This document shows positions 5,770 through 63,407 of a DNA stretch of 64,000 bases, in pieces. The stretch lies in assembly GCA_964472875.1 (NCBI GenBank), contig CAYYMD010000005.1, forward strand, positions 7,670-71,669, written 5' to 3'. Position 1 is the first letter of the stretch. Each line of letters opens with the position of its first letter. The notes under the pieces were generated by a model. That model did no database searches, was not told where the DNA came from, and saw only the letters and a program-made list of their open reading frames with translations. This DNA is from an uncultured Planctomycetaceae bacterium (GTDB lineage Bacteria; Planctomycetota; Phycisphaerae; SM23-33). Both the position numbers and the translations under genes were made by a program.

Positions 5770-5845
5770 CGAATAAATCCTTTCCTTTCTCTGTTGGTAA
5801 AACGTCTGTAACAATTCCGGCTGTTGGTCTACATTTTGGGGGTGA

Positions 5846-7294
5846 TTACGAGCGGCCGGGTTCGGCCATGACGATGGCGTGTACGGTGCCGTCGCGTGTT
5901 TTTATGTATCCTGTGTCGCCGACACTGGCGAAGGCGTTGCATGAGAGCACTCCGGGTATACGACGGACGATTTTTCCGGTGCGGCGATCCAGCGCCACGA
6001 GCCGTCCGTTCCGGCGGGTGTCGACGTAATAAATAAGTCCGCCGGTCTCACTCAGCGGACTGCATCCCTCGGCGGCGCGCTTCCAGAGCACCCGGCCCGT
6101 GCGACGGTCAATCGCAGTTACATTCCTGCCCCTCAGATAGAGTCCCTCGGAGGTCGTCAGCAGGCACCGGGTGGGGCTGACCGCCCTGCGCCACAGTGTT
6201 CGGCGAGAGTTTTCATCGATGCAGAACAGTTTGCTGTCCATGCCGAGTTCGGTTTGTGCGAAATAAATCCGTCCGGACCCCAGCGCCACAAGCGGTCGTC
6301 CGATGGCGAACCTGCTGTCCTCGAATTCTCGGCGCCACAAAATATGCCCGGAGGACGCCTCCAGCCGCATCAGCCGCCCCGCAGTTGCTACGTAAATATA
6401 ACCGTTTCTATTTGCCGCACGGGAAGGCAGCCCCTCACGCTCGAATGACCGCGTCCACTTTACCTCGCCCGTGGATGCGTTCAGCATTCGCACCTCGCGG
6501 CCGACGGTCCAGCATACCCTGTCCTGGCCCAGTGGCGACGGCCGGGAGGGATATATCGTGTGCCCGCGCCCCCGATAGATACTTTGCCACAATTTGCCGC
6601 CGTCGGCGGCGTCCAGCGCAAGCAGGGCGATTTGCCCGTTTTGCCCCTTGGCCAGACAGAATACCCTTTTTCCGTCGGCTGCGAGATAACCGAAACTTCT
6701 GGCCGGGCAAGTCCATTTGGACTCGCCGGTGGCGGCGTCCACGGCTACCACATGTCCGTCCGTATCATCGCCGGCAACAAAATACATGTTGTCGCCGTTT
6801 ACGATGAAACCATCCGCCGTAGAAGCCCGCGCGGCCATGGCGCCTTCGTAACGCCACTTTTCAAGAAATCCGTTGCTGGCTGATGTTTTCCGCGGCTGCG
6901 ATTCGCCACTGATTATGCCCCACAAACTCACCGCCGCGATAAGTACGGCCGCGGCGCCGAAGACAGTAATGACGCGACGAATACGACGGCCGAAACGTTT
7001 CGATTTGATTTCCCGCGACACTGCATCCTGCAATCTGTATTCGAAAGCGACCGACGGCGCATCGGCGTCGCCTGAGCATTTGACGTCGTCGGCGATCCGT
7101 CGGATTTGCTCCTTGGCCTCGCGGCAGGCCGGACATTGTCCGAGGTGCTCGCGCACCCGGCAGTGTTGCTGCGGCGAAAGGCCGCCAAAGACGTACAATT
7201 CGAGATTTTCGCGGGCTTGTCGGCAGTTCATGGCCGCATCCGGATACGGGCATATCCTTCCATCAATACGCTCAAACCGTCCGCGGCGGGACAA
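5846..7294 (-). CDS. Anti-sigma factor: N-terminal zinc-finger anti-sigma domain, TM helix, periplasmic PQQ-like beta-propeller
   Basis: The N-terminus (CRQARENLELYVFGGLSPQQHCRVREHLGQCPACRE) is a ZAS/ChrR-type anti-sigma zinc finger. One TM helix follows (ITVFGAAAVLIAAVSLWGII). The rest is repeated beta-propeller blades typical of PQQ/BamB-like repeats. It overlaps the ECF sigma gene by 23 nt. Confidence 0.55.
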   Translation of the reverse strand: MSRRGRFERIDGRICPYPDAAMNCRQARENLELYVFGGLSPQQHCRVREHLGQCPACREAKEQIRRIADDVKCSGDADAPSVAFEYRLQDAVSREIKSKRFGRRIRRVITVFGAAAVLIAAVSLWGIISGESQPRKTSASNGFLEKWRYEGAMAARASTADGFIVNGDNMYFVAGDDTDGHVVAVDAATGESKWTCPARSFGYLAADGKRVFCLAKGQNGQIALLALDAADGGKLWQSIYRGRGHTIYPSRPSPLGQDRVCWTVGREVRMLNASTGEVKWTRSFEREGLPSRAANRNGYIYVATAGRLMRLEASSGHILWRREFEDSRFAIGRPLVALGSGRIYFAQTELGMDSKLFCIDENSRRTLWRRAVSPTRCLLTTSEGLYLRGRNVTAIDRRTGRVLWKRAAEGCSPLSETGGLIYYVDTRRNGRLVALDRRTGKIVRRIPGVLSCNAFASVGDTGYIKTRDGTVHAIVMAEPGRS

Positions 7295-7880
7295 TTTTTT
7301 TGGAAATGTCGCCCGAAATTTCTTCCTCTTCCCCTGTGCTGTCTTTGTACAGTCGCCGCATCCGTCCGCTTTTACGCAGTCGCCGAAGCGCCCGCTGGGC
7401 GCGTTTTTTAGCCGCCTCGGTGGAAATCCCCATCGCTGCGGCTACGTCGACGAAAGGCATCTCATGTACAATCCGCAAAGTCAATACCATCCTGTCGTCT
7501 TTACTCAGTCCGGCCAGAATGTCCGATGCGTCAATATCTTTCCATGGTGAGGAGGTGTATGAAATGCATGTGCTCCCGAATGCCTGCTGATTCATTACAT
7601 AATTTGTCCTGCATTTCTTGTGGTGCAACCGCCGTCGAATCATATCTGTGCAAACGTTGCGGAGTATCGTATAGAACCAACTCGAGAACGGCCGGGACGT
7701 GCGGAATTTCTTACGGCTGCGAATCACACGCAGGAACGCCTCCTGGACGGCGTCTTCGGCCGCGTGCCCATCGCCGGCGTGGTCCATAATTCCATTTGCC
7801 ACTGCAAGCGCAGGCGAAGTGTAACGCCGCATGAGTTCATCGAACGCATCTGCGTCGAGGCAGGCCTTGAACCGAGCCAT
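7272..7880 (-). CDS. ECF (sigma-70 family) RNA polymerase sigma factor
   Basis: Region 2 (DAVQEAFLRVIRSRKKFRTSRPFSSWFYTILRNVCTDMIRRRL) and region 4 HTH (DDRMVLTLRIVHEMPFVDVAAAMGISTEAAKKRAQRALRRL) are both recognisable. The start is placed at the internal Met (MARFKAC...) at 7880. The ORF-track start at 8087 would add an implausible 69-aa AT-rich leader. Confidence 0.7.
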   Translation of the reverse strand: MARFKACLDADAFDELMRRYTSPALAVANGIMDHAGDGHAAEDAVQEAFLRVIRSRKKFRTSRPFSSWFYTILRNVCTDMIRRRLHHKKCRTNYVMNQQAFGSTCISYTSSPWKDIDASDILAGLSKDDRMVLTLRIVHEMPFVDVAAAMGISTEAAKKRAQRALRRLRKSGRMRRLYKDSTGEEEEISGDISKKIVPPRTV

Positions 7881-8158
7881 CAGCGATTCATCCCCAGCCG
7901 TACTTTTGCGACAGGGGACACCGTAACTTTTTCTGGAACAAAACGTTGTATTTTTCTTTTTACCGATGCTGTTGTTCCTCCGGATTTCGTGTCCCCATAC
8001 GGCACAGACGCCGCATGGCCGGCCAAATCGTCCGTTTTTGAAGTTAAACTCGATAATGTTATTATGGTTTTCCAATTTTATTGACAATTATTATTCACTA
8101 TTAATTTTCTGTTGCGATATGAAGTGTGAAGAAAATTGCCGAAATCCAAAATTTCTGG

Positions 8159-9004
8159 TTACTTGCTGAAATAAAGCCAAACGCCGTAATTGAGAGAGGA
8201 ATCTTCGGGCTTATGTCGAATTATCTCGAAGTCTTCGACATCCATTTGATTCATAATCACACGAAAACGCTTGGCGTCCTTGTCCGGATTGTACTTGGGC
8301 CCGCCGATTAAATGTTTGCGGGTCAGTTTTCTTACCTCACTTTCGGGCATAGTGGGCGCCACACCGCGCCCGATGAAGGCCTTCCCGCCCGGGCGCAGTA
8401 CCCTGTGAATTTCGGCCAGACCTGTTCGCAAGTCGCTCCAGAACTGGTAACTGCCGCGCGATATTATTATATCCGCGTAATTTTTCTTGAACGGCATGTC
8501 GCAGGCATCCGCAAACACAAATCCCGTACGATGCGCAAAATTGTAATCAAGAGATTCTTGTGCAAAGTTCCGAGCGCACCACGTGTTGATATCCGTGTTT
8601 ACCCAGTAGAAACGCTTGGTTCGCTCTACTAATTCAAAAACGAGATTGCCCGAACCGCCGCCGATATCAATCCCGATTCCCGCGCGTTTTGACAGGTTAA
8701 ACCGGTCCACCAAATAATCGGCCAGTCGGGCATAAACAATCTTCCGTCTGTCGCCAATCTTATCGATTCTCGCGGCTCTTTCCGGTCCGAATTTTTCGTA
8801 ATTCGGCCGCCGCAGGCCAAATCCAATTGTCGTGAGGGGTTTTTTTACATCAAAGCCGTGGTGAGCAAAAATTTCCCGGGCACGTGGACCGGCGCACACC
8901 AATCCCGTGCGTAAAGGAACGGCCACGATTTTCGAGCCCCTTTCAGTCGGCCGGCGGCTGCGTTCATCACCCTCGCCGCCGCTTAAAAAATGTCTTGCTT
9001 TCAA
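8159..9004 (-). CDS. Class I SAM-dependent methyltransferase
   Basis: Glycine-rich SAM motif I (GIDIGGGSGNLVFEL) and post-I/II motifs (ADIIISRGSYQFW, LRPGGKAFIG). Confidence 0.6.
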   Translation of the reverse strand: MKARHFLSGGEGDERSRRPTERGSKIVAVPLRTGLVCAGPRAREIFAHHGFDVKKPLTTIGFGLRRPNYEKFGPERAARIDKIGDRRKIVYARLADYLVDRFNLSKRAGIGIDIGGGSGNLVFELVERTKRFYWVNTDINTWCARNFAQESLDYNFAHRTGFVFADACDMPFKKNYADIIISRGSYQFWSDLRTGLAEIHRVLRPGGKAFIGRGVAPTMPESEVRKLTRKHLIGGPKYNPDKDAKRFRVIMNQMDVEDFEIIRHKPEDSSLNYGVWLYFSK

Positions 9005-9066
9005 GGCAGCACTGAATTATAAAATAATATGGAATAGTCAACTTATACTGATTTAAGGATGAACAA

Positions 9067-10227
9067 ATGAATACCATGTATGCAAGGTCAATTCGGGATC
9101 GTGTTCGGAAAGATGATTATTTTCAGGCGGCGCGTCGGCGCAGGGACACATGGTTAGGCAGCAGACTTAAGCACACTGCGTTTACCCTGGTCGAACTGCT
9201 GGTGGTCATTTTCATAATCGCTATGCTGGTGGCCATACTTGTCCCCAATCTATCCAAAGCCATGAGCGTTTCAAGGCGCGTTCAGTGCGCCAAGCAACTG
9301 CACGACATGGGCGTGGCTGCCGGTGCAATTCGTTCCAGTGGGGACACGGCGTATAACCCAGAACCGCTGTTGACCAAAACTGGCTGGGGAGGGCAACTGT
9401 TGGCCAAACTTAACGAGGAATCCTTTATTTGTCCCGAAGAAGACCCCATGCTGCCCATAGACGCAGTAAGGCATCCGCACCCCATGTCGAATTTGGGGGG
9501 ATACAGCATATACAATAAAGGCCTTGGCCACTATACGCCTTTAGAAGAAGGAGCATGGATGGTCAAACTGTCACAAACACAATTTAATAATGCTAAAAAC
9601 CAGGGTTACTTACGGGACAAGGGGCGGTGGTGGAACCCGTGGACGTATGAACCGGACAACAATCCGGGACATTACTATTTATGCTATGAAGGTATGCGAT
9701 GGAAACAAATATATAATAATCGTCAAGAGAAGGAAGAACCCGACTTTGATGATATAATCATCGAGGTGGAATTACAGCCCGGAGGCGAGACACGCGTTAC
9801 TAGTAGATATCAACCGGGGCCTTGGCCTCCTAATGGATCGACGATATATACGCATGCCATGGTTAACGAGGAGGGGGAAAAGTTTTTCGACCCGCTCAAT
9901 TTCTACCCTACTCCTACTATCTTCGATGTGGACACGGGCATGTGCAGTTACGGCATCAACTATAACGATAATGTCCGCAAGCTGGAAAGTATGGGAAAGA
10001 AGGTGCTTCTGCTGGATTACGAGGCGATGTGCGCGGAAGAGGATGACGAATACTGGGAAACCGGCCAAACGGGGGACCGCGACGGCGATGGGACGCTTGA
10101 CATCGCGCGCCACAGCGGCAAAATGAACGTTCTGTACCTCGACGGATCTGTGGAGGCGAAACGTCCGGAGGAAATCAATCCCCAGGGCGATTCGAAGATT
10201 CGCAACAGGATATGGGAAGAGAACTGA
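9067..10227 (+). CDS. DUF1559 (H-X9-DG) protein with prepilin-type N-terminal cleavage/methylation domain
   Basis: FTLVELLVVIFIIAMLVAILVPNL is a class III signal / N-methylation hydrophobic segment. The C-terminal HSGKMNVLYLDGSVE is an exact H-X9-DG motif. This family is abundant in Planctomycetota and relatives. Confidence 0.7.
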   Translation: MNTMYARSIRDRVRKDDYFQAARRRRDTWLGSRLKHTAFTLVELLVVIFIIAMLVAILVPNLSKAMSVSRRVQCAKQLHDMGVAAGAIRSSGDTAYNPEPLLTKTGWGGQLLAKLNEESFICPEEDPMLPIDAVRHPHPMSNLGGYSIYNKGLGHYTPLEEGAWMVKLSQTQFNNAKNQGYLRDKGRWWNPWTYEPDNNPGHYYLCYEGMRWKQIYNNRQEKEEPDFDDIIIEVELQPGGETRVTSRYQPGPWPPNGSTIYTHAMVNEEGEKFFDPLNFYPTPTIFDVDTGMCSYGINYNDNVRKLESMGKKVLLLDYEAMCAEEDDEYWETGQTGDRDGDGTLDIARHSGKMNVLYLDGSVEAKRPEEINPQGDSKIRNRIWEEN

Positions 10228-10281
10228 TTTGTAGTTCACGCGGCGCGGCGCAAAGACAAAGAGCGGAGAAGCGTTAATGTA

Positions 10282-10950
10282 ATGATACAGATGAGCCGTC
10301 GGATGTATATTCTTACAGGCATAGCCGTAGTGCTGGCCTGTGTTGCGGTGTGGACTCTGCTGACGGGAGAGGATATAAATGTAGATGACCCGATCCTGGC
10401 CAAAGTTTTGCGCCTGGAGCAGGAAGGCGATGTGGAAGCGCTTGCCCAAGCAGCCGGGGACGATAACACCCATCTTGCCGCCGAGGCCACAAAGGCCCTG
10501 GGGCGCATGGAAGTTGAAACCATACCACACGTGAAGGAATCCCTGAAAGACCGTCGCCAAAGGGTGCGCGAGGCGGCGGCGGGCGCGATTGGAAACATGG
10601 GCAGGCCCGCCGTGAGAAAATATCCCGGGGTAGTCGCCGACCTCGCACGGGTGGCGATGAATGACGACTCGGTGAATGTCAGGGCTTCGGCTGTGACTGC
10701 CCTCGGCAAGATGCGGGCCCACGAACACATGGAGGCGCTGCTGTCGGCCATGGACGATCCGGACGCTGCGGTCCGCGGGCGGGCGGCAAAGGCCGTTTCC
10801 AGGATTATCGGACGCGAATACGGCTTCAGGGCGAGCGCGCCGCGGGACCGGCGCCGCCAAGTTATTAAAAAGATCAGGGGCATCTGGCCGGAAATCGAAC
10901 CCTATATCCGCGAGTATTATTCCGAGGAATCACATCGCTGGAATGATTAA
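10282..10950 (+). CDS. HEAT-repeat (PBS-lyase-like) protein with N-terminal TM or signal segment
   Basis: Repeated Ala/Arg-rich helical hairpins (VREAAAGAIGNMG; VRASAVTALGKMR; VRGRAAKAVSRII) typical of HEAT/PBS lyase repeats. The N-terminus is hydrophobic (ILTGIAVVLACVAVWTLL). Confidence 0.5.
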   Translation: MIQMSRRMYILTGIAVVLACVAVWTLLTGEDINVDDPILAKVLRLEQEGDVEALAQAAGDDNTHLAAEATKALGRMEVETIPHVKESLKDRRQRVREAAAGAIGNMGRPAVRKYPGVVADLARVAMNDDSVNVRASAVTALGKMRAHEHMEALLSAMDDPDAAVRGRAAKAVSRIIGREYGFRASAPRDRRRQVIKKIRGIWPEIEPYIREYYSEESHRWND

Positions 10951-11377
10951 CTTAACCCTGTCGCAATGGGTCATAGCAACCGGAGATTTTACCTGCTGCG
11001 CTTCGGTCTGCGCCTGACTGGGGTGATAACTACTATCCGGGGCCCTGTTGCATCTCAGAGTTGAGACCGCGATTTGCCGCTGTACTTGCGGCGGAGGCGC
11101 TTAAGTATATCCAGGGCGGCCATTTGGATAACCGACGACCTGCCCGCCGACTGGTTTTCAAAAAGGTTGGCAGGCGGGTTCGTTCCATATGCTTAGATTT
11201 TTTTTGGCGCGGTAAGTCAAGTCGCGAGGCAGTTGCGCCAGCTGCACAATGGTGCTGCAATGGCCGATGGTTATAGCCGTGACCAAGTCACGAAAACGGT
11301 CCTATGCAGGTCCGACGAAGTGCTTGCATATGTGGTGAAAAAATTTTTTAACTTCCGCCGGAATCTCGCCGATGGTG

Positions 11378-11399
11378 GATTCCGGCGCGCCGGGATTCC
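11378..11399. repeat. Dispersed palindromic motif, copy 1 (GATTCCGGCGCGCCGGGATTCC)
   Basis: The core palindrome CCGGCGCGCCGG with GGATTCC flanks lies in an intergenic region and is preceded by a second inverted repeat GCCGGAATC ... GATTCCGGC. Confidence 0.6.
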
Positions 11400-11482
11400 T
11401 TCAATAAGTCTTTCTGCAAAAATGCCATATCAGCAGTTGCAGCCGCGTTTATTTTGTGCTAATCACCATCGATATTTCCTAA

Positions 11483-12580
11483 GTGGGGAAGTTTGGAGAT
11501 ATGGAGAGTAAATTAATGAATCACAAAGAACGCGTGCATACAGCTATACGTCACGAAATACCTGACATTACGCCCAAAGGCGATTTGGCAATCGAGGAAA
11601 AGCTTATTCGCAGCATTATCGGTCGGGTCCATTACGGGCGGATGAGCGCTAACGAGCGACTGCTTGCGACCTGGAACCGCCTGGGCGCCGACCTGGTCAA
11701 CATACATGAGTTCCCGATGGAACGGGTCGGGCGGACTGATTCGGGAAGTCCTATATTCCGCTCTGTTCTGGGCGACGAACATGTCATGGCGCCGGGCGCC
11801 TGCCGACTGCACCGGCCTGCAATGTCCGACATCGCGGAGGCCGAGCGATATGAAACCCCGGATGCCTCAACATGCAAAAGCGACTCTCTGGACTGGTTCG
11901 TCGCCAACAGCGATCTGTTTGTCTTCGCCCAGATCATGGGCCCGGTAAGCGCTCTGGACTGGATGCTGGGCACGGAGGATTTCCTCGTATATTGCATGAC
12001 CGAAACGAATTCCGTCCGGGACCTGATGGAGAAGGTAGCCAACTACGAAATCACTCGGGCTAAAATTTTTCTCGACCACGGCGCCGATGCGATTATGATT
12101 ACTGACGACATCGCATACAACGGCGGATTATTCCTGCCGCCGAGGATTATGGAAGAATTGGTTTGGGATCTGTACGTTCACATGTTGAGCGAGATAAAGA
12201 ACTGTCACAAAGCGCCGGTTTTTTTGCACACCGATGGCGATATCCGCGAGGTGCTTGGGAACATAGTCAAATGTGGATTTGACGGTCTGCATTCGCTGCA
12301 ACCTAGCGCAGGCATGGACATAGTGCAGGTCAAGCGCGACTTTGGCAATCGGCTTTGCCTGATGGGCAATATGGACCTGAATCACCTTATGCCTTATGGT
12401 GCGCCGGAAGAGGTAAGCAGGCAGGCAAAGTGGTTGTGCGAAACTATTGGCGGCAACGGCGGTTTCATTCTCGCAACGTGTAATGTGCTGACCGGTGCAA
12501 TCCCACTTGAAAACGTTTACGCCATGTATGGGGTTTCACCGCCGGACGGCAGTGAAACAGCCACCAGGAAAAATACATGA
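11483..12580 (+). CDS. Uroporphyrinogen decarboxylase (URO-D)/MtaA-like family protein
   Basis: 365-aa TIM-barrel-like protein resembling the URO-D/methylcobamide methyltransferase superfamily (ADAIMITDDIAYNGGLFLPP ... FLHTDGDIREVLGNIV ... LHSLQPSAGMD). The start codon is ambiguous among Mets at residues 1, 7 and 11. The stop overlaps the start of the symporter gene. Confidence 0.5.
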   Translation: MGKFGDMESKLMNHKERVHTAIRHEIPDITPKGDLAIEEKLIRSIIGRVHYGRMSANERLLATWNRLGADLVNIHEFPMERVGRTDSGSPIFRSVLGDEHVMAPGACRLHRPAMSDIAEAERYETPDASTCKSDSLDWFVANSDLFVFAQIMGPVSALDWMLGTEDFLVYCMTETNSVRDLMEKVANYEITRAKIFLDHGADAIMITDDIAYNGGLFLPPRIMEELVWDLYVHMLSEIKNCHKAPVFLHTDGDIREVLGNIVKCGFDGLHSLQPSAGMDIVQVKRDFGNRLCLMGNMDLNHLMPYGAPEEVSRQAKWLCETIGGNGGFILATCNVLTGAIPLENVYAMYGVSPPDGSETATRKNT

Positions 12581-14409
12581 CCATAATCGATACAATTGTA
12601 ATAGTTTTGTATTTAATAGGCATCGTTGCGGTGGGAGTGTATTTCTACCGCCTTTCGTCGAGGGGGACGCGGGCCTACTTCTTAGGGGGCAATAAGCTGC
12701 CGTGGTGGGCACTTGCAGCATCGGGCTCCGCGTCAAACTATGATGTGACAGGAACAATGTTCCTGGTCTCGCTGTTTTACGTAGTCGGGCTACGTAGTTT
12801 CTGGATGCTGTGGAGTTGGCAGTTCATGTCTGCGGCATTCCTGATGTCCTATATGGCTATATGGATCCGACGAACGAGGGTTATGACGGCCGTGGAACTT
12901 CTTCACATCCGCTTCGGAGCGGGCCCCGGTGGACGCATGGCTCGCACAGCCGGGGCCGTGTTAATGGTTACATTCCTGGTTTTCTCGATAGGTTATGCAT
13001 TCGTAGGTATAAGCAAGTTCCTGCCCCACGTGATCCCGGAATGGATACCCGGCAACGGGCGAATATGGGCGGTCGTGATAATGCTGTTGACTACCGTGTA
13101 CGTAACAGTGGGCGGCCTATCCGGCGTTGTGGTAACCGACCTCATACAGGCCGTGCTGATGAGCGTGGGCGGGATTCTTGTAGGGGTAATTGTTTTCATG
13201 AAACTCGACCTCTCAACCGTAGCCACCCTGCACGAACGTTTCGATACCAATATGCTTCCGCAGGCACAACTGTCGATGCCCCCCGGATATGAAACATGGA
13301 ATGACTTTGGCATCCTGTGCCTGTTCTGGTTTGCCGCTGGACTGTTGCTGAACATGAGCGGAGCCGGCGGACACTACCAGGAGCAAAGGTTTCTCGCTAC
13401 AAGGTCGGCGGGCGACTCCGCTCGCGCAGGTTGTGCATGGGGCATTTTTCTGATTCCACGCTGGGCCATGGTCGCCGGCTTCTGCTACATCGCTGCGACG
13501 GGAATGGCCGGCGCAGACGACCCGGAGCAGATTCTGCCGGTTGTGTTAATGGAAATGATTCCCGCCGGTCTTCGCGGCCTGCTTCTGGCGGCTTTTCTTG
13601 CGGCATTCATGTCCACATTCAGCTCTTACGTCAACGCTGCGGCTTCAATGGTTATCCGTGACCTGCTGCATCCTTTCATGCCGCGGATGAAAGACAGAAG
13701 CCAGGTTCTGGCTGGTTATATTGTCAGCGTAATGGCGGTTGCCTTAGGCATAATAATCGGCTTTAACGCCGAATCGATTAAAAATATATGGGTCTGGATG
13801 ATTATCGGGCTTATAGGCGGTTCTTTGATACCGAACGTGCTGCGCTGGCACTGGCACAGATTGAACGGATGGGGTTACTCTGCAGGTATATTCCTGGGCC
13901 TGATAACTGCGATGGCGGTGCGGTGCGGCCTGTTCGGCAAGGACCCTGCCGAGTATGTTTACGCACCGGTGGTCTGGATTATGACCTTGATCGGATGTGT
14001 GGCGGGATCACTTCTGACCCGCCCGGCGCCCACAAAGGTGCTGGAACGCTTCTACCGGACAGTCAGGCCGTTCGGATTCTGGGGGCCGGTCAAGAGGAAG
14101 GTCAATGCCACACCTCCTATCGGCGGCGTGGATTCTTCGCCCCTGCGCATAGCAGGTAATGTAGTGGTGGCTACAGTCAGTCTTATCAGCGCTTTCCTGG
14201 CCACATTTTTTATCGTGGGACATTATCTGCTGGCATCGATAATAACATTAATCACGGCTCTAACCGGTAGTGTTATACTCTATTTAACCTGGTACCGCCC
14301 GCTGGTTGCCGGTGAAAAGACCATAGATGATCCGCAGAAGCGGGAAAGCGAGAACACCGTCCGCTATTTTAAGATTAATCCTGAAGACTCTGAAGGCCGT
14401 AATCAATGA
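12577..14409 (+). CDS. Sodium:solute symporter family (SSS) transporter
   Basis: 610 aa with 13 or more TM helices. The N-terminal SSS signature (AYFLGGNKLPWWALAASGSASNYDVTGTMFLVSLFYVVG) is present. ATGA start/stop overlaps on both sides. Confidence 0.75.
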   Translation: MTIIDTIVIVLYLIGIVAVGVYFYRLSSRGTRAYFLGGNKLPWWALAASGSASNYDVTGTMFLVSLFYVVGLRSFWMLWSWQFMSAAFLMSYMAIWIRRTRVMTAVELLHIRFGAGPGGRMARTAGAVLMVTFLVFSIGYAFVGISKFLPHVIPEWIPGNGRIWAVVIMLLTTVYVTVGGLSGVVVTDLIQAVLMSVGGILVGVIVFMKLDLSTVATLHERFDTNMLPQAQLSMPPGYETWNDFGILCLFWFAAGLLLNMSGAGGHYQEQRFLATRSAGDSARAGCAWGIFLIPRWAMVAGFCYIAATGMAGADDPEQILPVVLMEMIPAGLRGLLLAAFLAAFMSTFSSYVNAAASMVIRDLLHPFMPRMKDRSQVLAGYIVSVMAVALGIIIGFNAESIKNIWVWMIIGLIGGSLIPNVLRWHWHRLNGWGYSAGIFLGLITAMAVRCGLFGKDPAEYVYAPVVWIMTLIGCVAGSLLTRPAPTKVLERFYRTVRPFGFWGPVKRKVNATPPIGGVDSSPLRIAGNVVVATVSLISAFLATFFIVGHYLLASIITLITALTGSVILYLTWYRPLVAGEKTIDDPQKRESENTVRYFKINPEDSEGRNQ

Positions 14410-17400
14410 AACAAACAAAAGGCATAGAGAAAATAATCGACAAGTGGCGCGGACTAATCAAGAGTAAAAAGCGGGCTATTATCAGTTTTGAAGAAATTAT
14501 CCAAGGCCGCATAGAATCACTGAAACCCTGGATATATCCCGACAGCGAACCACTGGAGGGGTGGACTTACCGGCAGTTTAAATATGACCGCCACGGCAAT
14601 CGCACCTTTGTGGATGACGAATGGCGGCCGATCCGTCCCGGCGATACCTGGGGCGGCGAGGACATGAGCGCCTATTTCCGCTGCAAGGCCTCTATTCCAG
14701 AACGGTTCAGGGGCAGAACCGTAGTGCTCAAATTATATTTTAGCGGAGACGGCCTGCTCAGAGTCAACGGCGACGCATTCCACGGTCTAGACCCGTTTCG
14801 CGACACTATATTTATGACCGAAAACGCCCAAGGTGACGAGTGCTTCGACTTGGAAGCGGAATCGTACATTATGTGGCACTTCGGCGAGGGCACCGTTAAA
14901 CATTTTGAAATCTCACAGTGGGCCGTTTTTGACCGAGAGCTTCACGAGGCGTATTGGGATCTAAAGACCGTTTTCAACCTAATGATGTCGGAGAAGACAA
15001 ACCCTGATGTCGTTAATTTTATCCGCAAGCACCTGGACGACTCCACCCGTCACATCGATCAGCGATGCGAAGACGGGGCGACAGTGCGTGAAATGGCGGT
15101 CCGGGCCCGGAAAATTATAAGAGAGAAAGTATATTCCTGCGACAGTTTCCGCCACGAGGGACTCTTGCACCTTACCGGCAATTCTCATCTTGATCTTGTT
15201 TACCTTTGGACACACGCTGAGTTTATCCGCAAGATAGGGCGCTCCCACGCCACGGCCCTGCGGCTGATGGAGCGATACCCCGAATACATATTTACCCAAA
15301 GTCAGCCCCACATGTATGATCAAATGAAGCGCCACTACCCGGAACTTTTCGAACAGGTTAAGCGGCGAATCGCCGAGGGTCGCTGGGAGGCCATAGGAGC
15401 GTTCTGGGTCGAGCCGGATTGCAACCTGATATCCGGGGAGTCAATGGTTCGCCAGATTATGCATGGTGTTGCCTATTACCAGAAAGAGTTCGGAGTCACG
15501 CCGCGGACCGCGTGGATTCCGGATGTCTTCGGCAACGCCTGGACCATGCCACAAATACTCGTCAAGTGCGGCCTGGAGTTCTTCGTAACGCACAAGATGA
15601 GCATCTGGAACGACACCAATGCGTGGACAAAGAACGTGTTCTGGTGGGAGGGCCCCGACGGATCACGTATATTCTCGCACGTGCCCACCACACATTTTAT
15701 CGGAACGGCAGAACCGGACCACTTGCAGGAGCACTGGGAAAGATTCTCCGATAAAGTGGAAATCGGCGAGTCCCTTTACTGCTATGGGTGGGGCGACGGC
15801 GGTGGCGGTCCGGATGCGGAAATGCTGGAATATTGCTGTCGTTACAGGTCGCTGCCGGGGCTCGTTCCATGCCGCAACTCCACGGTTGAGGATGCTCTGG
15901 AAAGCATGCGCGAGCGAGCCGAAAATGCCGATATACCTGTTATCAACGACGAACTCTACCTCGAAGAACATCGTGGCGTTAACACCACCAAGGGGCGACT
16001 CAAGAAATTGAACCGCTACTGCGAGCATCTGTACCGCAAGGCCGAATTGTTCAACTGTTTCTGCCGCGTTGCGTATCCGGCTGAAAGACTCCGTCAGGGC
16101 TGGCGGGAAGTTCTCGTCAACCAATTCCACGATTCACTGCCGGGGACACATGACTCGCGTTCTTACCTAGACATTCTGGAGTCCTATGACAGGGCGGTCG
16201 CCATTGGTCGGCAAGAGCTTCAAAATGCCCTGGAAGACATCATATCGCAAATCGACACCGACGGTCCGGGCCGGGCAGCCGTGATCTTCAATTCACTGCC
16301 GGCACCGCGGGACACCCGCGTCTCGATCCCGTGCGAACTTCCGGCCGCAACCGTGCTGGACCGCCGAGGAAATGAGATCCCCTGCCAGTTCAGCACAGAT
16401 TACCAAACGCACCAGCGAACACTTGAGTTTGAAGTAACCGATTTGCCTCCTGTTGGTTATGAGGTTTACCATATATTGGACAAACAGGAGGGTACGCACC
16501 GACCACGTCTCGAGTGTTACTATGGAGACAATGGTGAGATAATCCTCAATAACGAGCATATTCGAGCGGTAATCGATCAGGAGGGATGTATTGCCTCTCT
16601 GACGGACAAAAGCACCGGACGCGAGTTCATAGATACCCGCCGACGGGCAAACGTTTTCAAGCTTTACGAGGACATCCCCGGTACGTTCGATGCCTGGGAC
16701 ATAGAGGAACACTACACCAGCCACGAGTTCGACATGGGCACTGCCAAGGTGGCCATTCTTGAACAGGGTCCAGTAAAGGCGGTGGTCGAGGTCAACCGTT
16801 GTTTCCGTAATTCGCAACTTCGGCAGCAAATAGTACTGGGTGCGCAGGCCCGTCGCTTGGACTTTTGTACGTGGGTGGACTGGAAAGAACAGCGCAAACT
16901 GCTGAAGGTGCGTTTCCATACAAATATTCGCAGCCGAACGGCTACATATGACATCCCCTACGGAAACATTGAACGCCCTACTACAAGGAACAATTCTTAC
17001 GAGGCCGCCAAGTTTGAAGTACCCGGCCACGAGTGGATGGACCTTTCACAGGCCGATAGGGGCCTGAGCCTGCTGACAGATTCTAAATACGGATACGAGG
17101 CGCTCGGCTGTATGATATCGCTGTCGCTACTGAAAGGCCCCTTGTACCCAGACCCAACCTCGGATCAGGAGGAACATTACTTCACGTATTCATTGTATCC
17201 CCACGCAGACGGATGGCGGCGAACGGATACGATAGGGCAGGCCGCCGATTTGAACGACCCTGTGGAAGTTGTTATGTCCGAGCCGCATACGGGGCAAGCT
17301 CCCACCAGACGTTCATTTCTTCGGATGCAGGGTGAAGGCGTTACGCTGGAGGCAGTCAAGCAGGCCGAGAATGCCGATGGTGTAATTGTGCGCGTGGTCG

Positions 17401-17585
17401 AGCGACATGGCGGTGAGAAAACCGTTACACTCGAATTGTATGGAAATTTCGGATCAGTTTGCGAGTGCGACCTTCTTGAACGTGATGGGCAACCTCTGTC
17501 CAAAAATGCGGCCGGAAAAGTGTCGCTGGCTATCCGTCCCTACGAGATAAAGACACTGAGATTCACCAACGGACCTGCCGACTGA
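14406..17585 (+). CDS. GH38 alpha-mannosidase
   Basis: 1059 aa. The GH38 N-terminal catalytic region (HLTGNSHLDLVYLWT ... WVEPDCNLISGESMVRQ ... WIPDVFGNAWTMPQIL) and the central/C-terminal GH38 domains are present. Confidence 0.8.
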   Translation: MKQTKGIEKIIDKWRGLIKSKKRAIISFEEIIQGRIESLKPWIYPDSEPLEGWTYRQFKYDRHGNRTFVDDEWRPIRPGDTWGGEDMSAYFRCKASIPERFRGRTVVLKLYFSGDGLLRVNGDAFHGLDPFRDTIFMTENAQGDECFDLEAESYIMWHFGEGTVKHFEISQWAVFDRELHEAYWDLKTVFNLMMSEKTNPDVVNFIRKHLDDSTRHIDQRCEDGATVREMAVRARKIIREKVYSCDSFRHEGLLHLTGNSHLDLVYLWTHAEFIRKIGRSHATALRLMERYPEYIFTQSQPHMYDQMKRHYPELFEQVKRRIAEGRWEAIGAFWVEPDCNLISGESMVRQIMHGVAYYQKEFGVTPRTAWIPDVFGNAWTMPQILVKCGLEFFVTHKMSIWNDTNAWTKNVFWWEGPDGSRIFSHVPTTHFIGTAEPDHLQEHWERFSDKVEIGESLYCYGWGDGGGGPDAEMLEYCCRYRSLPGLVPCRNSTVEDALESMRERAENADIPVINDELYLEEHRGVNTTKGRLKKLNRYCEHLYRKAELFNCFCRVAYPAERLRQGWREVLVNQFHDSLPGTHDSRSYLDILESYDRAVAIGRQELQNALEDIISQIDTDGPGRAAVIFNSLPAPRDTRVSIPCELPAATVLDRRGNEIPCQFSTDYQTHQRTLEFEVTDLPPVGYEVYHILDKQEGTHRPRLECYYGDNGEIILNNEHIRAVIDQEGCIASLTDKSTGREFIDTRRRANVFKLYEDIPGTFDAWDIEEHYTSHEFDMGTAKVAILEQGPVKAVVEVNRCFRNSQLRQQIVLGAQARRLDFCTWVDWKEQRKLLKVRFHTNIRSRTATYDIPYGNIERPTTRNNSYEAAKFEVPGHEWMDLSQADRGLSLLTDSKYGYEALGCMISLSLLKGPLYPDPTSDQEEHYFTYSLYPHADGWRRTDTIGQAADLNDPVEVVMSEPHTGQAPTRRSFLRMQGEGVTLEAVKQAENADGVIVRVVERHGGEKTVTLELYGNFGSVCECDLLERDGQPLSKNAAGKVSLAIRPYEIKTLRFTNGPAD

Positions 17586-17754
17586 CACCCACGAGACTCC
17601 GCCTTCAATAATAACCATAACCAAAACTAATAAATCTTTTCCGAGCCGATTGCTCTGGCTGTAAATGACTGCCGCAAGGGGAATAAACTGCCATGGTTTA
17701 AAACCACGTAGCATTGCTGCTACGGATTTCGCCCGTCCGCCTGCTCCAAAGTGG

Positions 17755-18420
17755 TTTGGGATTTGGGTATTTGGGATTTGTTTCGCATTTCGATATCAGT
17801 ATTTCGGATTTTCATATTCTCCCATCCGGCCGTGTTTGTAAGCGCCCACTGTCAAGGGGGGGATGTTTTTTTCAATATGTTGCGTTATTATCCCCGCATT
17901 CACATGCGACAGCGGGGGCTTACTAAAATTACAAAAAACGCGTGCGGCCCTGCGGCCGAATTACGAATGACGAAATTCGAATGTCGAATCAATGACGAAT
18001 GCACGAATTACGAAACAAATCCGAAATCCCGACGGGACCTTTGGGCCCGGAGGGGCCGTCGGTCCGAAATTCGAAATATGTTTATCCCCTGCATCCCTGC
18101 TGATTTGCGCGCGCAGTTTGTCCGCGGAATCGGCCATAGCGCCCGAAAAAATAAAATTTTTTATGTCTTCTCCCGGCCGTGGGTTACGAATTCCGCATAC
18201 GCCCAACAGGCGCGGTTTGCGCGCGCAAAGGCGTTGTTTCGTCCAAGTATGGAGGGAAAAGTAAAAACTTAAAACTAAAAACTGAAAACTTAAATGCTGC
18301 CCGTCGCCATGGTGAAAAATGACCAATCCCGGCGCGCCGGGATTCCCAATGTCCAATTTCCTTACAAAAAACGCCGCGGGGCGGGCGGATCTGAAATCTC
18401 AAATTTTAAATTTCAAATTC
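17755..18420. repeat. Cluster of distinct short tandem repeats inside a 1.25-kb AT-rich non-coding region
   Basis: Seen directly in the sequence. (TTTGGGA/TTTGGGTA) x3.5 at 17755-17780. Degenerate heptamer NCGAAWN about 10x at 17955-18027 and again at 18061-18077. AAAACTN x4 at 18264-18291. AAATTTY x3 at 18398-18420. The perfect palindrome TTGCGCGCGCAA occurs twice (18105-18116 and 18217-18228). A G7 tract then a T7 tract at 17856-17872. Confidence 0.7.
18325..18344. repeat. Dispersed palindromic motif, copy 2 (AATCCCGGCGCGCCGGGATT, perfect 20-nt palindrome)
   Basis: It shares the core CCGGCGCGCCGGGATTCC with copy 1 and is intergenic. Confidence 0.6.
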
Positions 18421-18833
18421 TTGTCTGCTGTCTGCCTCGAAAAAGCGCGGCTTTTGAGAGGATCGCGGGTCAGAATTATGATTAACCACTGCAATACATA
18501 CACTTACGAATTTCTGTCAAGGGTAAAAAACGCGCAATATCGCGCAAAAAGGTCTAAAAACCTGCAACAGCCCGGCACAACGCGCAAAAAACCGGCAATT
18601 CCTGAAATAACTTACAAAGACGAGCAATACAGGCCCGAGTTCCAAGTTCCTCGCAAACGTCTTGAACGCACAGCCGGGCGAAAATACTTGCTCCCTGCGC
18701 TGAATTTGTTAATTTTACATTAATCGCAAATGCTCGTATCGGTAACGGGCCCGCCGGTACGAGAATTATTCACGGGGCCTGAATAAATTGGCGATAAAAT
18801 GGTTCGTTTAACCGCCGCCAGGAAAGGTCAATT

Positions 18834-21335
18834 ATGTCAATTATAAACACACTATCCCGTTTTGCTTTGTCACATGTTTTGTTTCTCGGCCTGCTGACCG
18901 TCTCTTTCATGGCCACGGGTCTGCGTGCGGATACGTCGCTGCTGCCGATGGAATCGCCCCAACGGGGATTCGTCAGCACGCGTCCGGCCGAGACGTGGGA
19001 GCAGGGGCTCCTGACGGGCAACGGCACCGTCGGGGCGAACGTCTTCGCCCGCCCGCTGGAGGAGACGATAATATTCACGCACGAGCGCCTGTTCCTGCCG
19101 CAGGGCGACCCGCACATGCCTCCGCCTCAGATGGGCACGCGATTGTACGACATCCGCCGTCTGATAGACCGCGGGCTCTACAGCCAGGCCGCGCAACTGG
19201 CGTCCGACCTGTCCGAACAGGACGGTTTCATGTACCCCGACCCGTTTGTGCCGGCCTTTGATATGAAAATAGACATGACATCGCCGGGGACGTCAGCGAT
19301 CGAGCGCTACCGTCGCGGCGTGAATTTCGAAAACGGCCTGGCCGGTGTGCAGTGGAAGGACGGCAGGGGCGTGTTCGAGCGGCGAATGATGGTTTCCCGG
19401 GCAGACGACCTTGCGGCGATGCAGATACGCGCGTCCAAGGCCGGTTCTATCCACTGCACCCTGGATCTGACGCCCCGCCGGCCCAGCGAGAAAATCGATG
19501 AGAAAAAACGCCGCCAGTCCGTCCGGCGTTTCGAAAATTCAATTAAGGACCTTGAGATTACCGCCGACGGCCGCACGCTGACCTTCCGCAACACCTTCGC
19601 AAACGCCTACCCGGGCAGCGTTCAAGCCGTCGAGGGCGTGGTGCACGTCCGCACGCAGGGCGGAAAGGTCACCACGAAGGACCGGACGATGATCATCGAC
19701 GGGGCGGACGAGGTTACGCTGCTTGTCGACGTGAATGTTATTTACAGGAAGGACCATTCGCGCATCGAGCAGACAAAATCGCGCCTGGCCGGCATAAAGC
19801 ACGATTTCGAGACTCTGCTGGAGCGGCATGCGCGTATCCACGGCGAGATGTTCAACCGGATGCGCCTGGAAATCGGCGGCGAGCATCACGACTGGAGCAC
19901 CGAGAAACTGCTGGCCGCCTCGACGAACGAAAAACTCTCGCGGACGCTGATTGAGAAGGAATTCGACGCCGCCCGCTACAACATAATCTGCAGCACGGGC
20001 GAGCTGCCGCCGGTGCTTCAGGGAATCTGGGCGGGGACATACGTCCCGTCGTGGGCGAGCGACTTTACGCACAACGGCAACGTTCCTTCGGCCATCGCCG
20101 CAATGCTCATGGGCAACACGCCGGAACTGATGCTCGCCTACACCAATTACATGGAATCCATCGTCGGCGACATGCGGGTCAACGCCAGGAACATTTTCGG
20201 CGCCCGCGGCATCGTCCTGCCCTCGCGGAGCAGCGCGCGGGCGTTCAACAACGCACTTGCGCCGAGGTTCGCCGGCGGATTCTGGGTGGCCGGCGCGCCG
20301 TGGGCGGCGCACTTCTTCTACGACTACTACCTCTACACCGGCGACAAAAAGTTCCTCGCCGAACACGCCCTGCCGTTCATGGAGGAGGCGGCCGTGTTCT
20401 TCGAAGATTACCTTTACGAAGGCCCCGACGGAAAATACGTGTTCAATCCCACCCAGTCGCCGGAAAACACACCCTCCAACACGCACTCGCAGGCCACGTT
20501 CAACGCGACGATGTCGGTGGCGGCCGTGAAGCAACTGCTGCGAAACCTCATCGAGGCCTCGCAGACGCTCGGCGTCAACGAGGACAAAATCCCCCAATGG
20601 CGCAACATGCTTGCCAAGATGCCGCCTTACCTCATCGACGAGGAACTCGGCGTGGTGAAGGAATGGCTGACGCCAAAACTCAAGGACAATCTCAACCACC
20701 GCCATTCGTCCCAGCTTTACCCCGTGTATTACACCATGTCGGAGGAAGTGGCCGGCAGCGAAAAACTGCAAAACGCCTTCAAGCGTATCGTCGAGATAAA
20801 ACTCGAGAAGCACTGGAAAGCCAAGCGCTCGGGTTTCATGTCCTTCGGCCTGGTGCAGCTTGGCCAGGCGGCCACGACTCTGGGCGACGGCGATCTGGCC
20901 TACCGCTGCCTGCGGCAACTGGTCAACCGCTACTGGCTGAACAACCTGGCGTCCATGCACAATCACCGCTCGCTGCTGAACATGGACATAAGCGGCGGCA
21001 TGCCGGCCGTCATTATCAAGATGCTGGTCGCCTCGGCACCGGGCAGGGTGCAACTGCTGCCCGCCCTGCCGAAAGAGTGGCCCGCCGGCGCCGTGGAGGG
21101 CGTGTTGTGCCGCGGCCAAATCGAGGTCGAACGGCTCCGGTGGGGCAAGGACGGCATACGCCTGCGGCTGCGCTCGGGCAAAAAGCAGACCGTCACGCTC
21201 GAAGCGCCACAGTGGGCCGACCGGGCCGAGGTGGCCGAAGGCGACGCCACTGTGAAGGCCGCCGACCGCGACAACGCCTGGCGGCTGTCGCTGCCCGCCG
21301 ACCGGCCGGTCGAACTGACTATATCGGCGAAATAA
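18834..21335 (+). CDS. GH95-family glycoside hydrolase (alpha-L-fucosidase/alpha-L-galactosidase-like)
   Basis: 833 aa with a signal peptide. The GH95 N-terminal motif GNGTVGANVF ... E.IIFTHERLF is present. The GH95 six-hairpin catalytic region (FWVAGAPWAAHFFYDYYLYTGDKKFLAEHALPFMEEAAVFFEDYL ... NPTQSPEN) closely follows the GH95 pattern. Confidence 0.65.
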   Translation: MSIINTLSRFALSHVLFLGLLTVSFMATGLRADTSLLPMESPQRGFVSTRPAETWEQGLLTGNGTVGANVFARPLEETIIFTHERLFLPQGDPHMPPPQMGTRLYDIRRLIDRGLYSQAAQLASDLSEQDGFMYPDPFVPAFDMKIDMTSPGTSAIERYRRGVNFENGLAGVQWKDGRGVFERRMMVSRADDLAAMQIRASKAGSIHCTLDLTPRRPSEKIDEKKRRQSVRRFENSIKDLEITADGRTLTFRNTFANAYPGSVQAVEGVVHVRTQGGKVTTKDRTMIIDGADEVTLLVDVNVIYRKDHSRIEQTKSRLAGIKHDFETLLERHARIHGEMFNRMRLEIGGEHHDWSTEKLLAASTNEKLSRTLIEKEFDAARYNIICSTGELPPVLQGIWAGTYVPSWASDFTHNGNVPSAIAAMLMGNTPELMLAYTNYMESIVGDMRVNARNIFGARGIVLPSRSSARAFNNALAPRFAGGFWVAGAPWAAHFFYDYYLYTGDKKFLAEHALPFMEEAAVFFEDYLYEGPDGKYVFNPTQSPENTPSNTHSQATFNATMSVAAVKQLLRNLIEASQTLGVNEDKIPQWRNMLAKMPPYLIDEELGVVKEWLTPKLKDNLNHRHSSQLYPVYYTMSEEVAGSEKLQNAFKRIVEIKLEKHWKAKRSGFMSFGLVQLGQAATTLGDGDLAYRCLRQLVNRYWLNNLASMHNHRSLLNMDISGGMPAVIIKMLVASAPGRVQLLPALPKEWPAGAVEGVLCRGQIEVERLRWGKDGIRLRLRSGKKQTVTLEAPQWADRAEVAEGDATVKAADRDNAWRLSLPADRPVELTISAK

Positions 21336-21366
21336 ACGCAAATTCTGTGTCCCCAGCGCGTCGTAG

Positions 21367-21382
21367 TCCCGGTGCGCCGGGA
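21367..21382. repeat. Dispersed palindromic motif, copy 3 (TCCCGGTGCGCCGGGA, one mismatch)
   Basis: It lies 30 nt downstream of the GH95 stop codon and is intergenic. Confidence 0.45.
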
Positions 21383-21553
21383 TAAACCAGTCTAAGACCA
21401 GGAGAGCCGCAAGCATTCCGGCCGTTCTGGCTGTATGCTTGCTCTACGCCTTTGCGATTTGGGGCAACGCAATTTGACACACTATTAAATTAATCTTAAT
21501 CGAATCTTAACAATCATTACAGAAACTTATTCCAACCTGAATATTTCACACGG

Positions 21554-32211: not shown

Positions 32212-32298
32212 GCCCGGGTGGCGGAATTGGCAGACGCGTCAGGTTGAGGGCCTGGTGGCCTATAAAAGGCCGTGCTGGTTCGAATCCAGTCCCGGGCA
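32212..32298 (+). tRNA. tRNA-Leu (anticodon GAG), class II with long variable arm
   Basis: Manual fold: acceptor GCCCGGG/CCCGGGC, D-arm GCGGAATTGGCAGACGC, anticodon stem-loop TCAGG-TTGAGGG-CCTGG (anticodon GAG), long variable arm TGGCCTATAAAAGGCCG, T-arm GGTTCGAATCC, discriminator A. A TTGACA hexamer sits about 40 nt upstream. Confidence 0.8.
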
Positions 32299-32397
32299 GT
32301 TTCACATTTCGGATCTCAAATTTGAGATTTCAAATTAAGAAACGTGTGGGAGGGTGACCAAGAGTCAGATTTTGTCTGTGGCGGCCGATTTTATGTT

Positions 32398-63351: not shown

Positions 63352-63407
63352 AGTGTTACAAGAAAATATAGAATAAAACTTAAAACAATGACAGGTTAAT
63401 ATATTAT

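Follow-up and report, generated by a model that had tools for sequence, protein, structure and literature searches.

Heptanucleotide arrays and REP-like palindromes in a gene-free spacer between GH38 and GH95 genes of an uncultured planctomycete

Between the stop codon of a GH38 alpha-mannosidase gene and the start codon of a GH95 gene, a contig of an uncultured Planctomycetaceae bacterium (GenBank assembly GCA_964472875.1, contig CAYYMD010000005.1) carries 1248 nt (17586-18833) in which several short tandem repeats and palindromes lie close together. What is this spacer, and how did so many different small repeats come to stand between two genes? We examined it within a 64,000-nt window of the contig (positions 7,670 to 71,669), whose own numbering is used below unless another locus is named. 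A sequence-only reading of the window had described the spacer as an AT-rich mosaic of microrepeats and had suggested for it a phase-variable control region, a mobile-element remnant, a replication-related sequence or a long structured leader of the GH95 gene. The spacer is non-coding, has a 7-nt periodicity and contains elements in common with other Planctomycetota. We consider it probable that it is the boundary spacer of two transcription units, which has gathered slippage-made heptamer arrays and hairpins resembling repetitive extragenic palindromic (REP) elements.

The gap between the two genes is real and holds no convincing open reading frame (ORF). Its flanks were assigned by Pfam: the GH38 gene (14406-17585, plus strand) is the third and last gene after a URO-D-like gene and an SSF transporter, and the GH95 gene (18834-21335, plus strand) has a ribosome-binding site, AGGAAAGG, and a signal peptide. 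Codon scores, Pfam, protein search and Rfam all describe the interval between them as gene-free. Under a codon model fitted to the long genes of the window, all ORFs in the gap have negative log-odds, and the GC1-3 profile is flat. Neither these ORFs nor six-frame segments of at least 30 amino acids matched Pfam, and the concatenated six-frame segments had no match at E ≤ 0.01 among 5.8 billion proteins. A hidden gene or pseudogene was rejected on the basis of the negative codon log-odds and the lack of a Pfam or protein match; the sequence-only reading had allowed for a conserved hidden gene, which was sought and not found, so its non-coding claim stands. The Rfam search that it had suggested was run and returned no known RNA: Rfam 15 gave no match within the gap at the gathering threshold, and at E ≤ 10 only three matches of 11-18 bits, far under their thresholds. 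A known RNA was rejected on this negative result in the gap and because no Rfam family lies over the arrays of other loci either. Plasmid and phage collections had no match to the gap. Other apparent gaps are occupied by lower-GC genes (an extracytoplasmic function (ECF) sigma factor, a methyltransferase and a NYN-domain gene), and the spacer is therefore the longest verified gene-free stretch among the window stretches checked. Its GC content is 47.6%, compared with 56.9% for the window, 53.6% for GH38 and 61.8% for GH95, so that 'AT-rich' is correct relative to the surroundings and incorrect in absolute terms. A replication-related sequence found no support: the gap has no DnaA box (TTATCCACA) at ≤1 mismatch and its GC skew shows no switch or inversion, on which grounds a replication origin was rejected.

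The periodicity of the spacer is pronounced. Self-match at lag 7 was 0.315 versus 0.250 ± 0.013 in 300 dinucleotide shuffles (z = 5.0). Tandem Repeats Finder (TRF) returned seven rows in the gap versus 0.33 ± 0.55 in shuffles, and five period-7 rows versus 0.06. Across the 64-kb window TRF made five period-7 array calls, four of them within the gap; the fifth, a short (CAGTCAT)3 within the GH38 coding sequence (about 15930-15950), appeared only in an unfiltered re-run, and in the standard listing period 7 is confined to the gap. The mosaic of unrelated short tandem repeats and palindromes had been correctly recognised, and it is unique within the window. To call the gap 'built from' microrepeats was an overstatement, as they dot it rather than fill it: the arrays cover about 232 nt, or about 19%.

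The four arrays are all described here on the plus strand. Array A (17750-17815, from TRF and the sequence) comprises TTTGGGA ×3.6 (17755-17780), continued by degenerate TTTCGNN units; it is T/G-rich and contains GGA motifs and three G3 runs. Array B (17955-18027, from TRF and a pattern search) is A-rich and comprises nine CGAAWNN units, scored by TRF as CGAATGA ×8.6 (17957-18014) and found by the pattern search as three overlapping matches versus 0.24 expected. Its CGAA starts follow exact 7-nt steps at 17957, 17964, 17971, 17978 and 17985, then fall at 17996, 18004, 18011 and 18022, and past a hairpin CGAA occurs again at 18065 and 18072. This gives eleven CGAA-phased units overall (17957-18072), in agreement with the roughly ten degenerate NCGAAWN heptamers first noticed; (TTTGGGA)n, (AAAACTN)4 and (AAATTTY)3 were likewise recovered. 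Array C (18256-18296, TRF) is AAAACTN ×4.4, G-poor and A-rich, called by TRF as AAAACTT at 18264-18294 or alternatively as period 14 ×2.8. Array D (18385-18420, TRF) reads GGATCT GAAATCT CAAATTT TAAATTT CAAATTC and is scored as AAATYTN, AAATTTC or ATCTCAA, ×3.7-4.3, at 18389-18419. Matches between units are 72-90% with three to four units each, except for the 8.6 degenerate units of array B, and the array nearest the GH95 start codon lies at least 415 nt upstream of it. Judged by eye, about half of the array units carry a stop codon and 10 of 24 are without G or without C. The count of a further motif, TTACAAANACG, is not over chance, and ATTTCGGWT is at best weakly enriched (5 matches versus 1.4 expected, a count reached in 1 of 100 shuffles). 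A signal at lag 349 (z = 4.6) is diffuse, without a resolved duplication.

The second component is a REP-like palindrome, AATCCCGGCGCGCCGGGATT (18325-18344), of 20 nt with an 8-bp stem and a CGCG loop; its core is CCCGGCGCGCCGGG (18328-18341), and GGTCATTTTT comes next when the minus strand is read. The window holds three sites at ≤1 mismatch versus 0.1 expected, all intergenic. One near-copy, at 11381 (11376-11399), precedes the URO-D-like/SSF/GH38 operon by about 85 nt, and the other, at 21368 (21364-21383), lies 33 nt past the GH95 stop with CGTCGTAG, a tag typical of REP elements, in front of it. This GTAG tag accompanies the 21368 copy only, the 18325 and 11381 copies being without it, and no REP-associated tyrosine transposase (RAYT, a Y1 transposase) was found among the window ORFs scanned. 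The description of the palindrome as dispersed holds well beyond the window. Scanning species-representative genomes with a palindrome 17-mer gave at least 120 loci, and among the matches listed about 40 are in Planctomycetota metagenome-assembled genomes (MAGs). At many of these Planctomycetota sites the palindrome is non-coding and adjoins 7-nt arrays, the unit differing by locus; one MAG, SOY_64_metabat_58, has at least 10 palindrome copies among the fetched loci.

In the loci fetched for comparison (denoted L), period 7 is the commonest tandem-repeat class of Planctomycetota, with 17 mostly intergenic arrays in 275 kb versus 6 in 570 kb from other phyla (binomial p = 6e-5). In the sequence immediately flanking the palindrome, the lag-7 self-match for Planctomycetota as a group was 0.294 versus 0.266, a marginal excess (p = 0.056), and the association of palindrome and heptamers is therefore limited to a subset of sites. 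The sequence-only reading had proposed looking for similar mosaics elsewhere in the genome; they were sought in other Planctomycetota and found. The clearest, L097 2706-3785 (Planctomycetota MAG LSA5.bin36), is a stretch of about 1.1 kb without genes, bordered by genes of one strand, with five or six different heptamer arrays (GTTGCTC/GTTACTC, (GTTGGTA)10, GCATTGA, TTGATCG, GTTGGCA), GC hairpins and the same palindrome, and is a direct counterpart of the spacer under study. The L097 gap also has more than one copy of a longer motif, TATCCGCG TCATCCGCGC TATCCGCGG. An equivalent mosaic occupies L006 6470-6790, and with L032 and L069 four Planctomycetota loci show the same kind of mosaic. The mosaic had been called unusual, a description to be tempered in view of these four loci and the documented heptamer repeats of other bacteria (PMC4679880, PMC4692102).

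Two of the present arrays are similar to arrays of distant Planctomycetota. Array B aligns with L032 6499-6553 (56 nt at 80%, E = 3e-6) and array D with L069 1921-1952 (32 nt at 91%, E = 4e-5); these scores were reached by 0 of 200 dinucleotide shuffles of the gap and by 7 of 400 synthetic random heptamer arrays. In L032 inverted arrays surround the palindrome, and in both L032 and L061 arrays lie just past stop codons. An element of about 60 nt, GGCGGAGCCTTTGGTTCCCGGCGCGCCGGGATTCCACGGCGGGAGCCGTGGAACGAG, occurs on at least six contigs (L004, L044, L061, L067, L069, L114) of MAG SOY_64_metabat_58, and in L069 (CGAGTTAAA)3 (TCTCAAA)5 (TTTGAAA)3 come after it. In a Pirellulales ribosomal-protein operon, L015, arrays fill the L14-L24, S14-S8 (with the palindrome), L6-L18 and L18-S5 spacers (1266-1306, 2458-2529, 3512-3560 and 4083-4110; units AGTTNNN, GCAATAC, TAGTNNN and TTTTGAG). 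Since these arrays lie inside operon spacers, arrays can be co-transcribed. Several of the L015 units carry a stop triplet, and three such units would give stops in all three frames.

A further heptamer site within the window lies directly 3' of a tRNA-Leu(GAG) gene (32212-32340 for gene and flank together), where an AT hairpin with heptamer arms (32299-32340, fold z = -3.4) reads TTTCACA TTTCGGA TCTCAAA TTTGAGA TTTCAAA; array D matches part of this flank (32313-32336) over 24 nt at 92%. All named homologs of the housekeeping GTPase RsgA belong to Planctomycetota or Phycisphaerae, which suggests a Phycisphaerae-like planctomycete, probably with no close relative at this locus. In the closest relative available, L128 (RsgA 79% identical), the tRNA-Leu and its promoter CTTGACAGTTTCGCGCCGGTGGGATATCGTCG are conserved, and the 3' flank carries a T-rich period-7/8 array of different units (2099-2340 for the whole). 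The contig of L128 ends before GH95, and the nearest GH95 homolog, 70% identical, is not syntenic. About 270 nt upstream of a GH95 homolog, metagenome samples differ in the copy number of an (AAAGG)n repeat, with 7.8 copies in L122 (9691-9729) and 5.8 in L123 and L124 (9701-9729), which shows that simple repeats close to genes of this kind can vary.

The remaining anatomy of the spacer is dominated by hairpins. About 110 nt past the GH38 stop, two adjoining small hairpins (TGGTTTAAAACCA and CGTAGCA-TTGC-TGCTACG; 17694-17724, plus strand) fold with z = -2.5 and were called by the terminator scan on the minus strand, where they have T-rich tails. Arrays A and B are inverted with respect to each other: 17766-17792 pairs with 18004-18030 (27 nt at 85%, 211 nt apart) around a tighter core (17769-17785 and 18011-18027, 17 nt with one mismatch), and the unit 17740-18090 folds with z of about -3.9 on both strands. 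Enclosed by the two arrays is an 86-nt self-complementary, Y-shaped element (17838-17923) with a 16-nt outer stem (14 of 16 paired) and two inner hairpins. Its fold z is -4.9 on the plus and -6.7 on the minus strand, a GUGA (GNRA) loop is present on the minus strand only, and in the local fold scan it is the sole structured stretch of the gap, with minus-strand z of -3.0 to -3.3 over 17800-17960. No related copy was found in the window, in about 1 Mb of fetched loci or in a scan of JGI metagenomes with a 20-mer of its core, the single match of which was judged to be chance.

Two related modules follow on the minus strand. Each consists of TTACAAAAAACGC, a GC mini-hairpin and an A-rich array (17929-17989 and 18362-18418, 67% identical over 61 nt); the first head (17929-17958) has an exact 13-mer in common with that at 18362 and on the minus strand forms a weak hairpin followed by T6, and in the second head (18362-18388) the exact repeat is joined to the GC-rich CGCGGGGCGGGCGG. 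Within the CGAAAT array stands a GC-rich hairpin, CCGACGG...CCGTCGG (18029-18062, an inverted repeat folding at -22.4 kcal/mol), with TCCGAAAT directly repeated on either side and two further CGAAAT units to 18078. Beyond it are an imperfect palindrome, TTTGCGCGCGCAG (18104-18116), an AT palindrome, AAAAAATAAAATTTTTTAT (18146-18164, with the palindrome AAAATTTT at 18153), and a perfect 14-nt palindrome, TTTGCGCGCGCAAA (18216-18229). Two perfect copies of one palindrome had been claimed here. The 12-mer TTTGCGCGCGCA is indeed exactly repeated in the copies at 18105 and 18217; TTGCGCGCGCAA is perfect only at 18217, the 18105 copy being TTGCGCGCGCAG, which ends in G. The centres of the GC palindromes (18110.5, 18222.5, 18334.5) are spaced by exactly 112 nt. 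A tandem 112-nt unit was rejected, in-register identity between units being at background, and short palindromes overall are not enriched in the gap.

Nearer to GH95, a region of A-tracts (18525-18596, plus strand), with A5-6 runs at 18525, 18546, 18556 and 18586, surrounds a hairpin, CGCGCAATATCGCGCA (18531-18546); the tracts between 18525 and 18591 follow one another at multiples of about 10 nt and contain the repeated units CGCGCAAAAA(A) at 18541 and 18581 and AAAAAACGCGC at 18525. Another plus-strand hairpin, CTCGTATCGG...CCGGTACGAG (18733-18764, fold z = -2.5), lies about 70 nt upstream of the GH95 start. Local fold z is about 0 throughout 18400-18833, which speaks against the long structured 5' leader that had been suggested. 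A consensus scan for promoters gave as its best sigma-70-like match TTGAGA-17-TATGAT (18454-18482, plus strand, 10 of 12 positions), a candidate GH95 promoter, although the number of such sites (2 versus 1.8 expected in shuffles) is not above chance. Terminator-like sites, hairpins followed by a T-run, number seven versus 2.2 ± 1.4 expected, and all are on the minus strand.

Taken as a boundary, the spacer would separate the URO-D-like/SSF transporter/GH38 operon on one side from the GH95 gene on the other and would owe its content to two kinds of small repeat that appear typical of Planctomycetota, namely short heptanucleotide arrays and GC-rich REP-like palindromic hairpins. Replication slippage, which favours 7-nt units in bacteria, is the most likely source of the arrays and of their turnover, and the palindromes would be dispersed small elements. 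The most likely role of the DNA is that of a hairpin-rich 3' end or insulator. An association with 3' ends is suggested by the heptamers flanking tRNA-Leu in the window and in L128 and by the arrays past stop codons in L032 and L061. GH38 would be followed by its two hairpins and the T-rich array A, the minus-strand stack of hairpin and T-run modules would halt antisense or divergent transcription, and the final few hundred bases would hold the GH95 leader and a promoter at the putative position given above. Of the earlier suggestions only that of a mobile-element remnant comes close to this, in that the palindrome is a dispersed element; the arrays belong to a known heptanucleotide class.

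Several observations weigh against the boundary reading. The terminator scan found no plus-strand terminator with a U-tract after GH38. Three loci chosen for their GH95 genes (taxonomy unassigned, 58 kb, high GC) have no heptamer arrays, indicating a patchy feature. Arrays between co-directional genes of other Planctomycetota are T-rich on the sense strand in 10 of 13 cases (judged by eye on rough gene calls), unlike arrays B, C and D, whose A-rich strand is that of GH38 and GH95; a purely neutral view does not explain this minus-strand polarity or that of all terminator-like sites. Finally, slippage alone is insufficient to explain the recurrence of CGAATGA-type and TCTCAAA/TTTCAAA-type arrays in distant Planctomycetota, which hints at function or mobility. 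Much less probably, the GC palindrome and heptamer arrays may instead form a conserved, phylum-wide functional or mobile module of Planctomycetota that draws on a limited shared vocabulary of units (CGAATGA-type, TCTCAAA/TTTCAAA-type and AAAACTN-type). Such a module could be a new hairpin-centred family of miniature elements with heptamer arms, or its arrays could bind an RNA- or DNA-binding protein; the Y-shaped element at 17838-17923, with its inverted flanking arrays, would then represent either a structured RNA not yet characterised or the central part of an element of this family.

The functional form of this idea is that the arrays are sequence-specific RNA or DNA binding platforms for one or more Planctomycetota-wide proteins, such as a post-transcriptional regulator like S1, Csp or CsrA or a heptad-reading ribbon-helix-helix protein, and that the spacer is a regulatory hub for GH95, the GH38 operon or both. 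Array types in common among distant Planctomycetota exceed chance, array A carries GGA motifs, and the L015 arrays lie just upstream of start codons, in parallel with the TAACTGA repeats for which such a role has been proposed (PMC4679880). However, at least four different units within 700 nt are more than one binding protein can account for, the arrays are short and degenerate and come no closer than 415 nt to the start codon of GH95, the units of the tRNA-Leu flank differ between relatives, and no candidate binding protein was identified; we regard the hub as possible though unlikely. We are slightly more doubtful that 17750-18080 is a transposable element of the miniature inverted-repeat kind (MITE) or its remnant, with arrays A and B as terminal inverted repeats around the 86-nt core and the rest of the gap as similar debris. 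The nested inverted repeats, the folding of the whole unit and of the core on both strands, the inverted arrays around the palindrome in L032 and the TCCGAAAT repeats bracketing the 18029-18062 hairpin speak for such an element. Against it, no second copy turned up in the other 62.7 kb of the window, in the fetched loci or in plasmids and phages, the JGI scan gave a chance match only, the outer ends have no visible target-site duplication, and direct repeats around a hairpin come automatically in a tandem array.

The strand asymmetry raises the question of whether small non-coding RNAs, one or several, are read from the minus strand of the gap, for example one of about 225 nt comprising the Y domain (17923 to 17838) and a C/A-rich tail of (AAAUCCC)n and terminating with the 17724-17707 hairpin and UGGUUUU. 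That strand has all seven terminator-like sites, the better fold of the Y element (ensemble frequency 0.40), its only GNRA loop and the local fold z of -3.0 to -3.3 given above. Yet neither the consensus scan nor reading of the sequence gave a convincing upstream promoter, there is no Rfam match and no homolog for covariation among the sequences searched, and the asymmetry may just reflect an A-rich plus strand, so that we think a small RNA improbable. Control of GH95 by phase variation, in which changes in repeat number would switch expression, is far less credible: tandem repeats do lie upstream of the gene, and (AAAGG)n near a GH95 homolog differs between samples as described above, but the gap arrays are too short and imperfect for high slippage rates, and none lies in the ORF or in the spacer of the candidate promoter (18460-18476). 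The contingency-locus proposal of the sequence-only reading is not borne out, for the same short, imperfect units and their distance from the start codon. Just as remote is a decayed gene or an assembly artefact, for example a chimeric join at a common repeat. Base composition changes at the gap, from 52-55% GC and a codon score of 0.10-0.16 on the left (about 7.4-18.8 kb) to 60-63% and 0.35 from GH95 onward. Nevertheless, no frame has a coding signal or homolog, codon usage at 1-7.4 kb equals that of the right side, so the contig is not a chimera of two genomes, the same 18-mer palindrome flank occurs inside the low-GC block at 11382, and the sequence has no runs of N.

If the spacer is indeed a boundary that has gathered slippage-made arrays and REP-like hairpins, it is a clear example that Planctomycetota share the unexplained heptanucleotide excess of bacteria, alongside a REP-like palindrome of phylum-wide occurrence. 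Annotators should refrain from fitting genes into gaps of this type, which can also break or mis-join metagenome assemblies. The tRNA-Leu flank, where the array is kept and its units are changed, offers a comparative handle on the preference for 7-nt units. Should the less likely reading as conserved modules prove true instead, they would indicate either a small mobile element or an RNA/DNA-binding system, new in each case, and this in a phylum with hardly any work on its regulatory sequences.

Some further features of the window and the fetched loci deserve mention. The gap forms the right edge of a block (about 7400-18800) of 52-55% GC and weaker codon bias, flanked by sequence of 58-63% GC and containing an ECF sigma factor, a methyltransferase, prepilin-like and HEAT-repeat proteins and the URO-D-like/SSF/GH38 operon; this lower-GC block may be an old acquired island. 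A minus-strand cluster at 3724-8087 comprises an ECF sigma factor (7272-8087), an anti-sigma-like protein (5846-7441, zf-HC2 and PQQ beta-propeller) and a protein (3724-5901) whose Plug domain is of the TonB-dependent-receptor type, and could be a regulator for the adjacent glycan-use genes. Genes for the breakdown of fucose and mannose glycans are abundant in the window, including a second, divergent GH95-like gene (33775-36108) and a GH29 alpha-L-fucosidase (56368-58227). Near the window's end, about 55 nt (GCAGGGGTYGCSAACATTTGACGACTGGGCGTTGGGGCGG...) occur twice at about 90% identity (62985-63050 and 63940-64000) on either side of a very AT-rich stretch (63351-63800), and look like two insertion-sequence ends or transposase gene starts. 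Among the fetched loci, a Phycisphaeraceae contig (L073 832-877) has an Rfam match to Acido-Lenti-1 RNA (44.6 bits), over the gathering score.

How does the spacer compare with known repeat systems? REP elements and the bacterial interspersed mosaic elements (BIMEs) are dispersed GC-rich extragenic palindromes and their mosaic clusters (PMC3733652, PMC2817692). The palindrome described here resembles them as a 20-nt GC-rich extragenic sequence that is above chance in the window and clustered in a mosaic, and differs from them in the lack of a RAYT among the scanned ORFs, in having the tag at one copy only and in being common to many Planctomycetota genomes rather than species-specific. Of the hallmarks of a MITE, terminal inverted repeats are present, and dispersed copies and target-site duplications were not found in the sequences searched. 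Phase-variation loci are marked by a long near-perfect tract in an ORF or promoter spacer, which the gap arrays do not form. A parallel to the spacer comes from Nostoc punctiforme, for which Elhai et al. are said to have described in 2008 small dispersed repeats (SDR), very small hairpin-forming elements embedded in tandem heptamers; these belong to another phylum and have other sequences.

In most bacterial genomes, heptanucleotides were reported to outnumber every other class of long simple repeat, and the cause proposed is that DNA polymerase holds about 7 nt, which would favour slippage of that length (both Mrazek, Guo and Shah 2007, as cited in PMC4679880 and PMC4692102). Three heptamers are described as the short tandemly repeated repetitive (STRR) sequences of Calothrix, with cyanobacterial STRR also in Nostoc and Anabaena. 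In the literature searched, we found no description of heptamer arrays in Planctomycetes. In Xanthomonas (GGGAATC) and Nostoc (GGGGA(T/C)T), intergenic heptamers occur mostly as about four units, some in inverted pairs (Rehm et al. 2015, PMC4692102). The present arrays are likewise intergenic and heterogeneous, with inverted pairs able to form stem-loops; those genomes, however, have one dominant G-rich, G-quadruplex-capable unit, whereas in the spacer TTTGGGA is the sole G-rich unit, with just three G3 runs, among units otherwise A/T-rich. TAACTGA, known from marine Beggiatoaceae and some Cyanobacteria and Bacteroidetes, stands in 2-6 intergenic copies, including in ribosomal-protein operon spacers (MacGregor 2015, PMC4679880), a placement matched in L015; it is a single unit a few nucleotides from start codons, in contrast to the differing and distant units of the gap. 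The closest likeness in kind is to STRR-like repeats, which are tandem 7-nt intergenic units of the same size class, several per genome, and of function not known. The spacer belongs with them in having at least three head-to-tail 7-nt copies per array (four arrays, 3.6-8.6 copies) in non-coding DNA, and departs from them in clustering four or five units within 700 nt, interleaved with GC palindromes. The spacer is thus a combination of heptanucleotide simple repeats and REP-like palindromes, both kinds already known, here in Planctomycetota.

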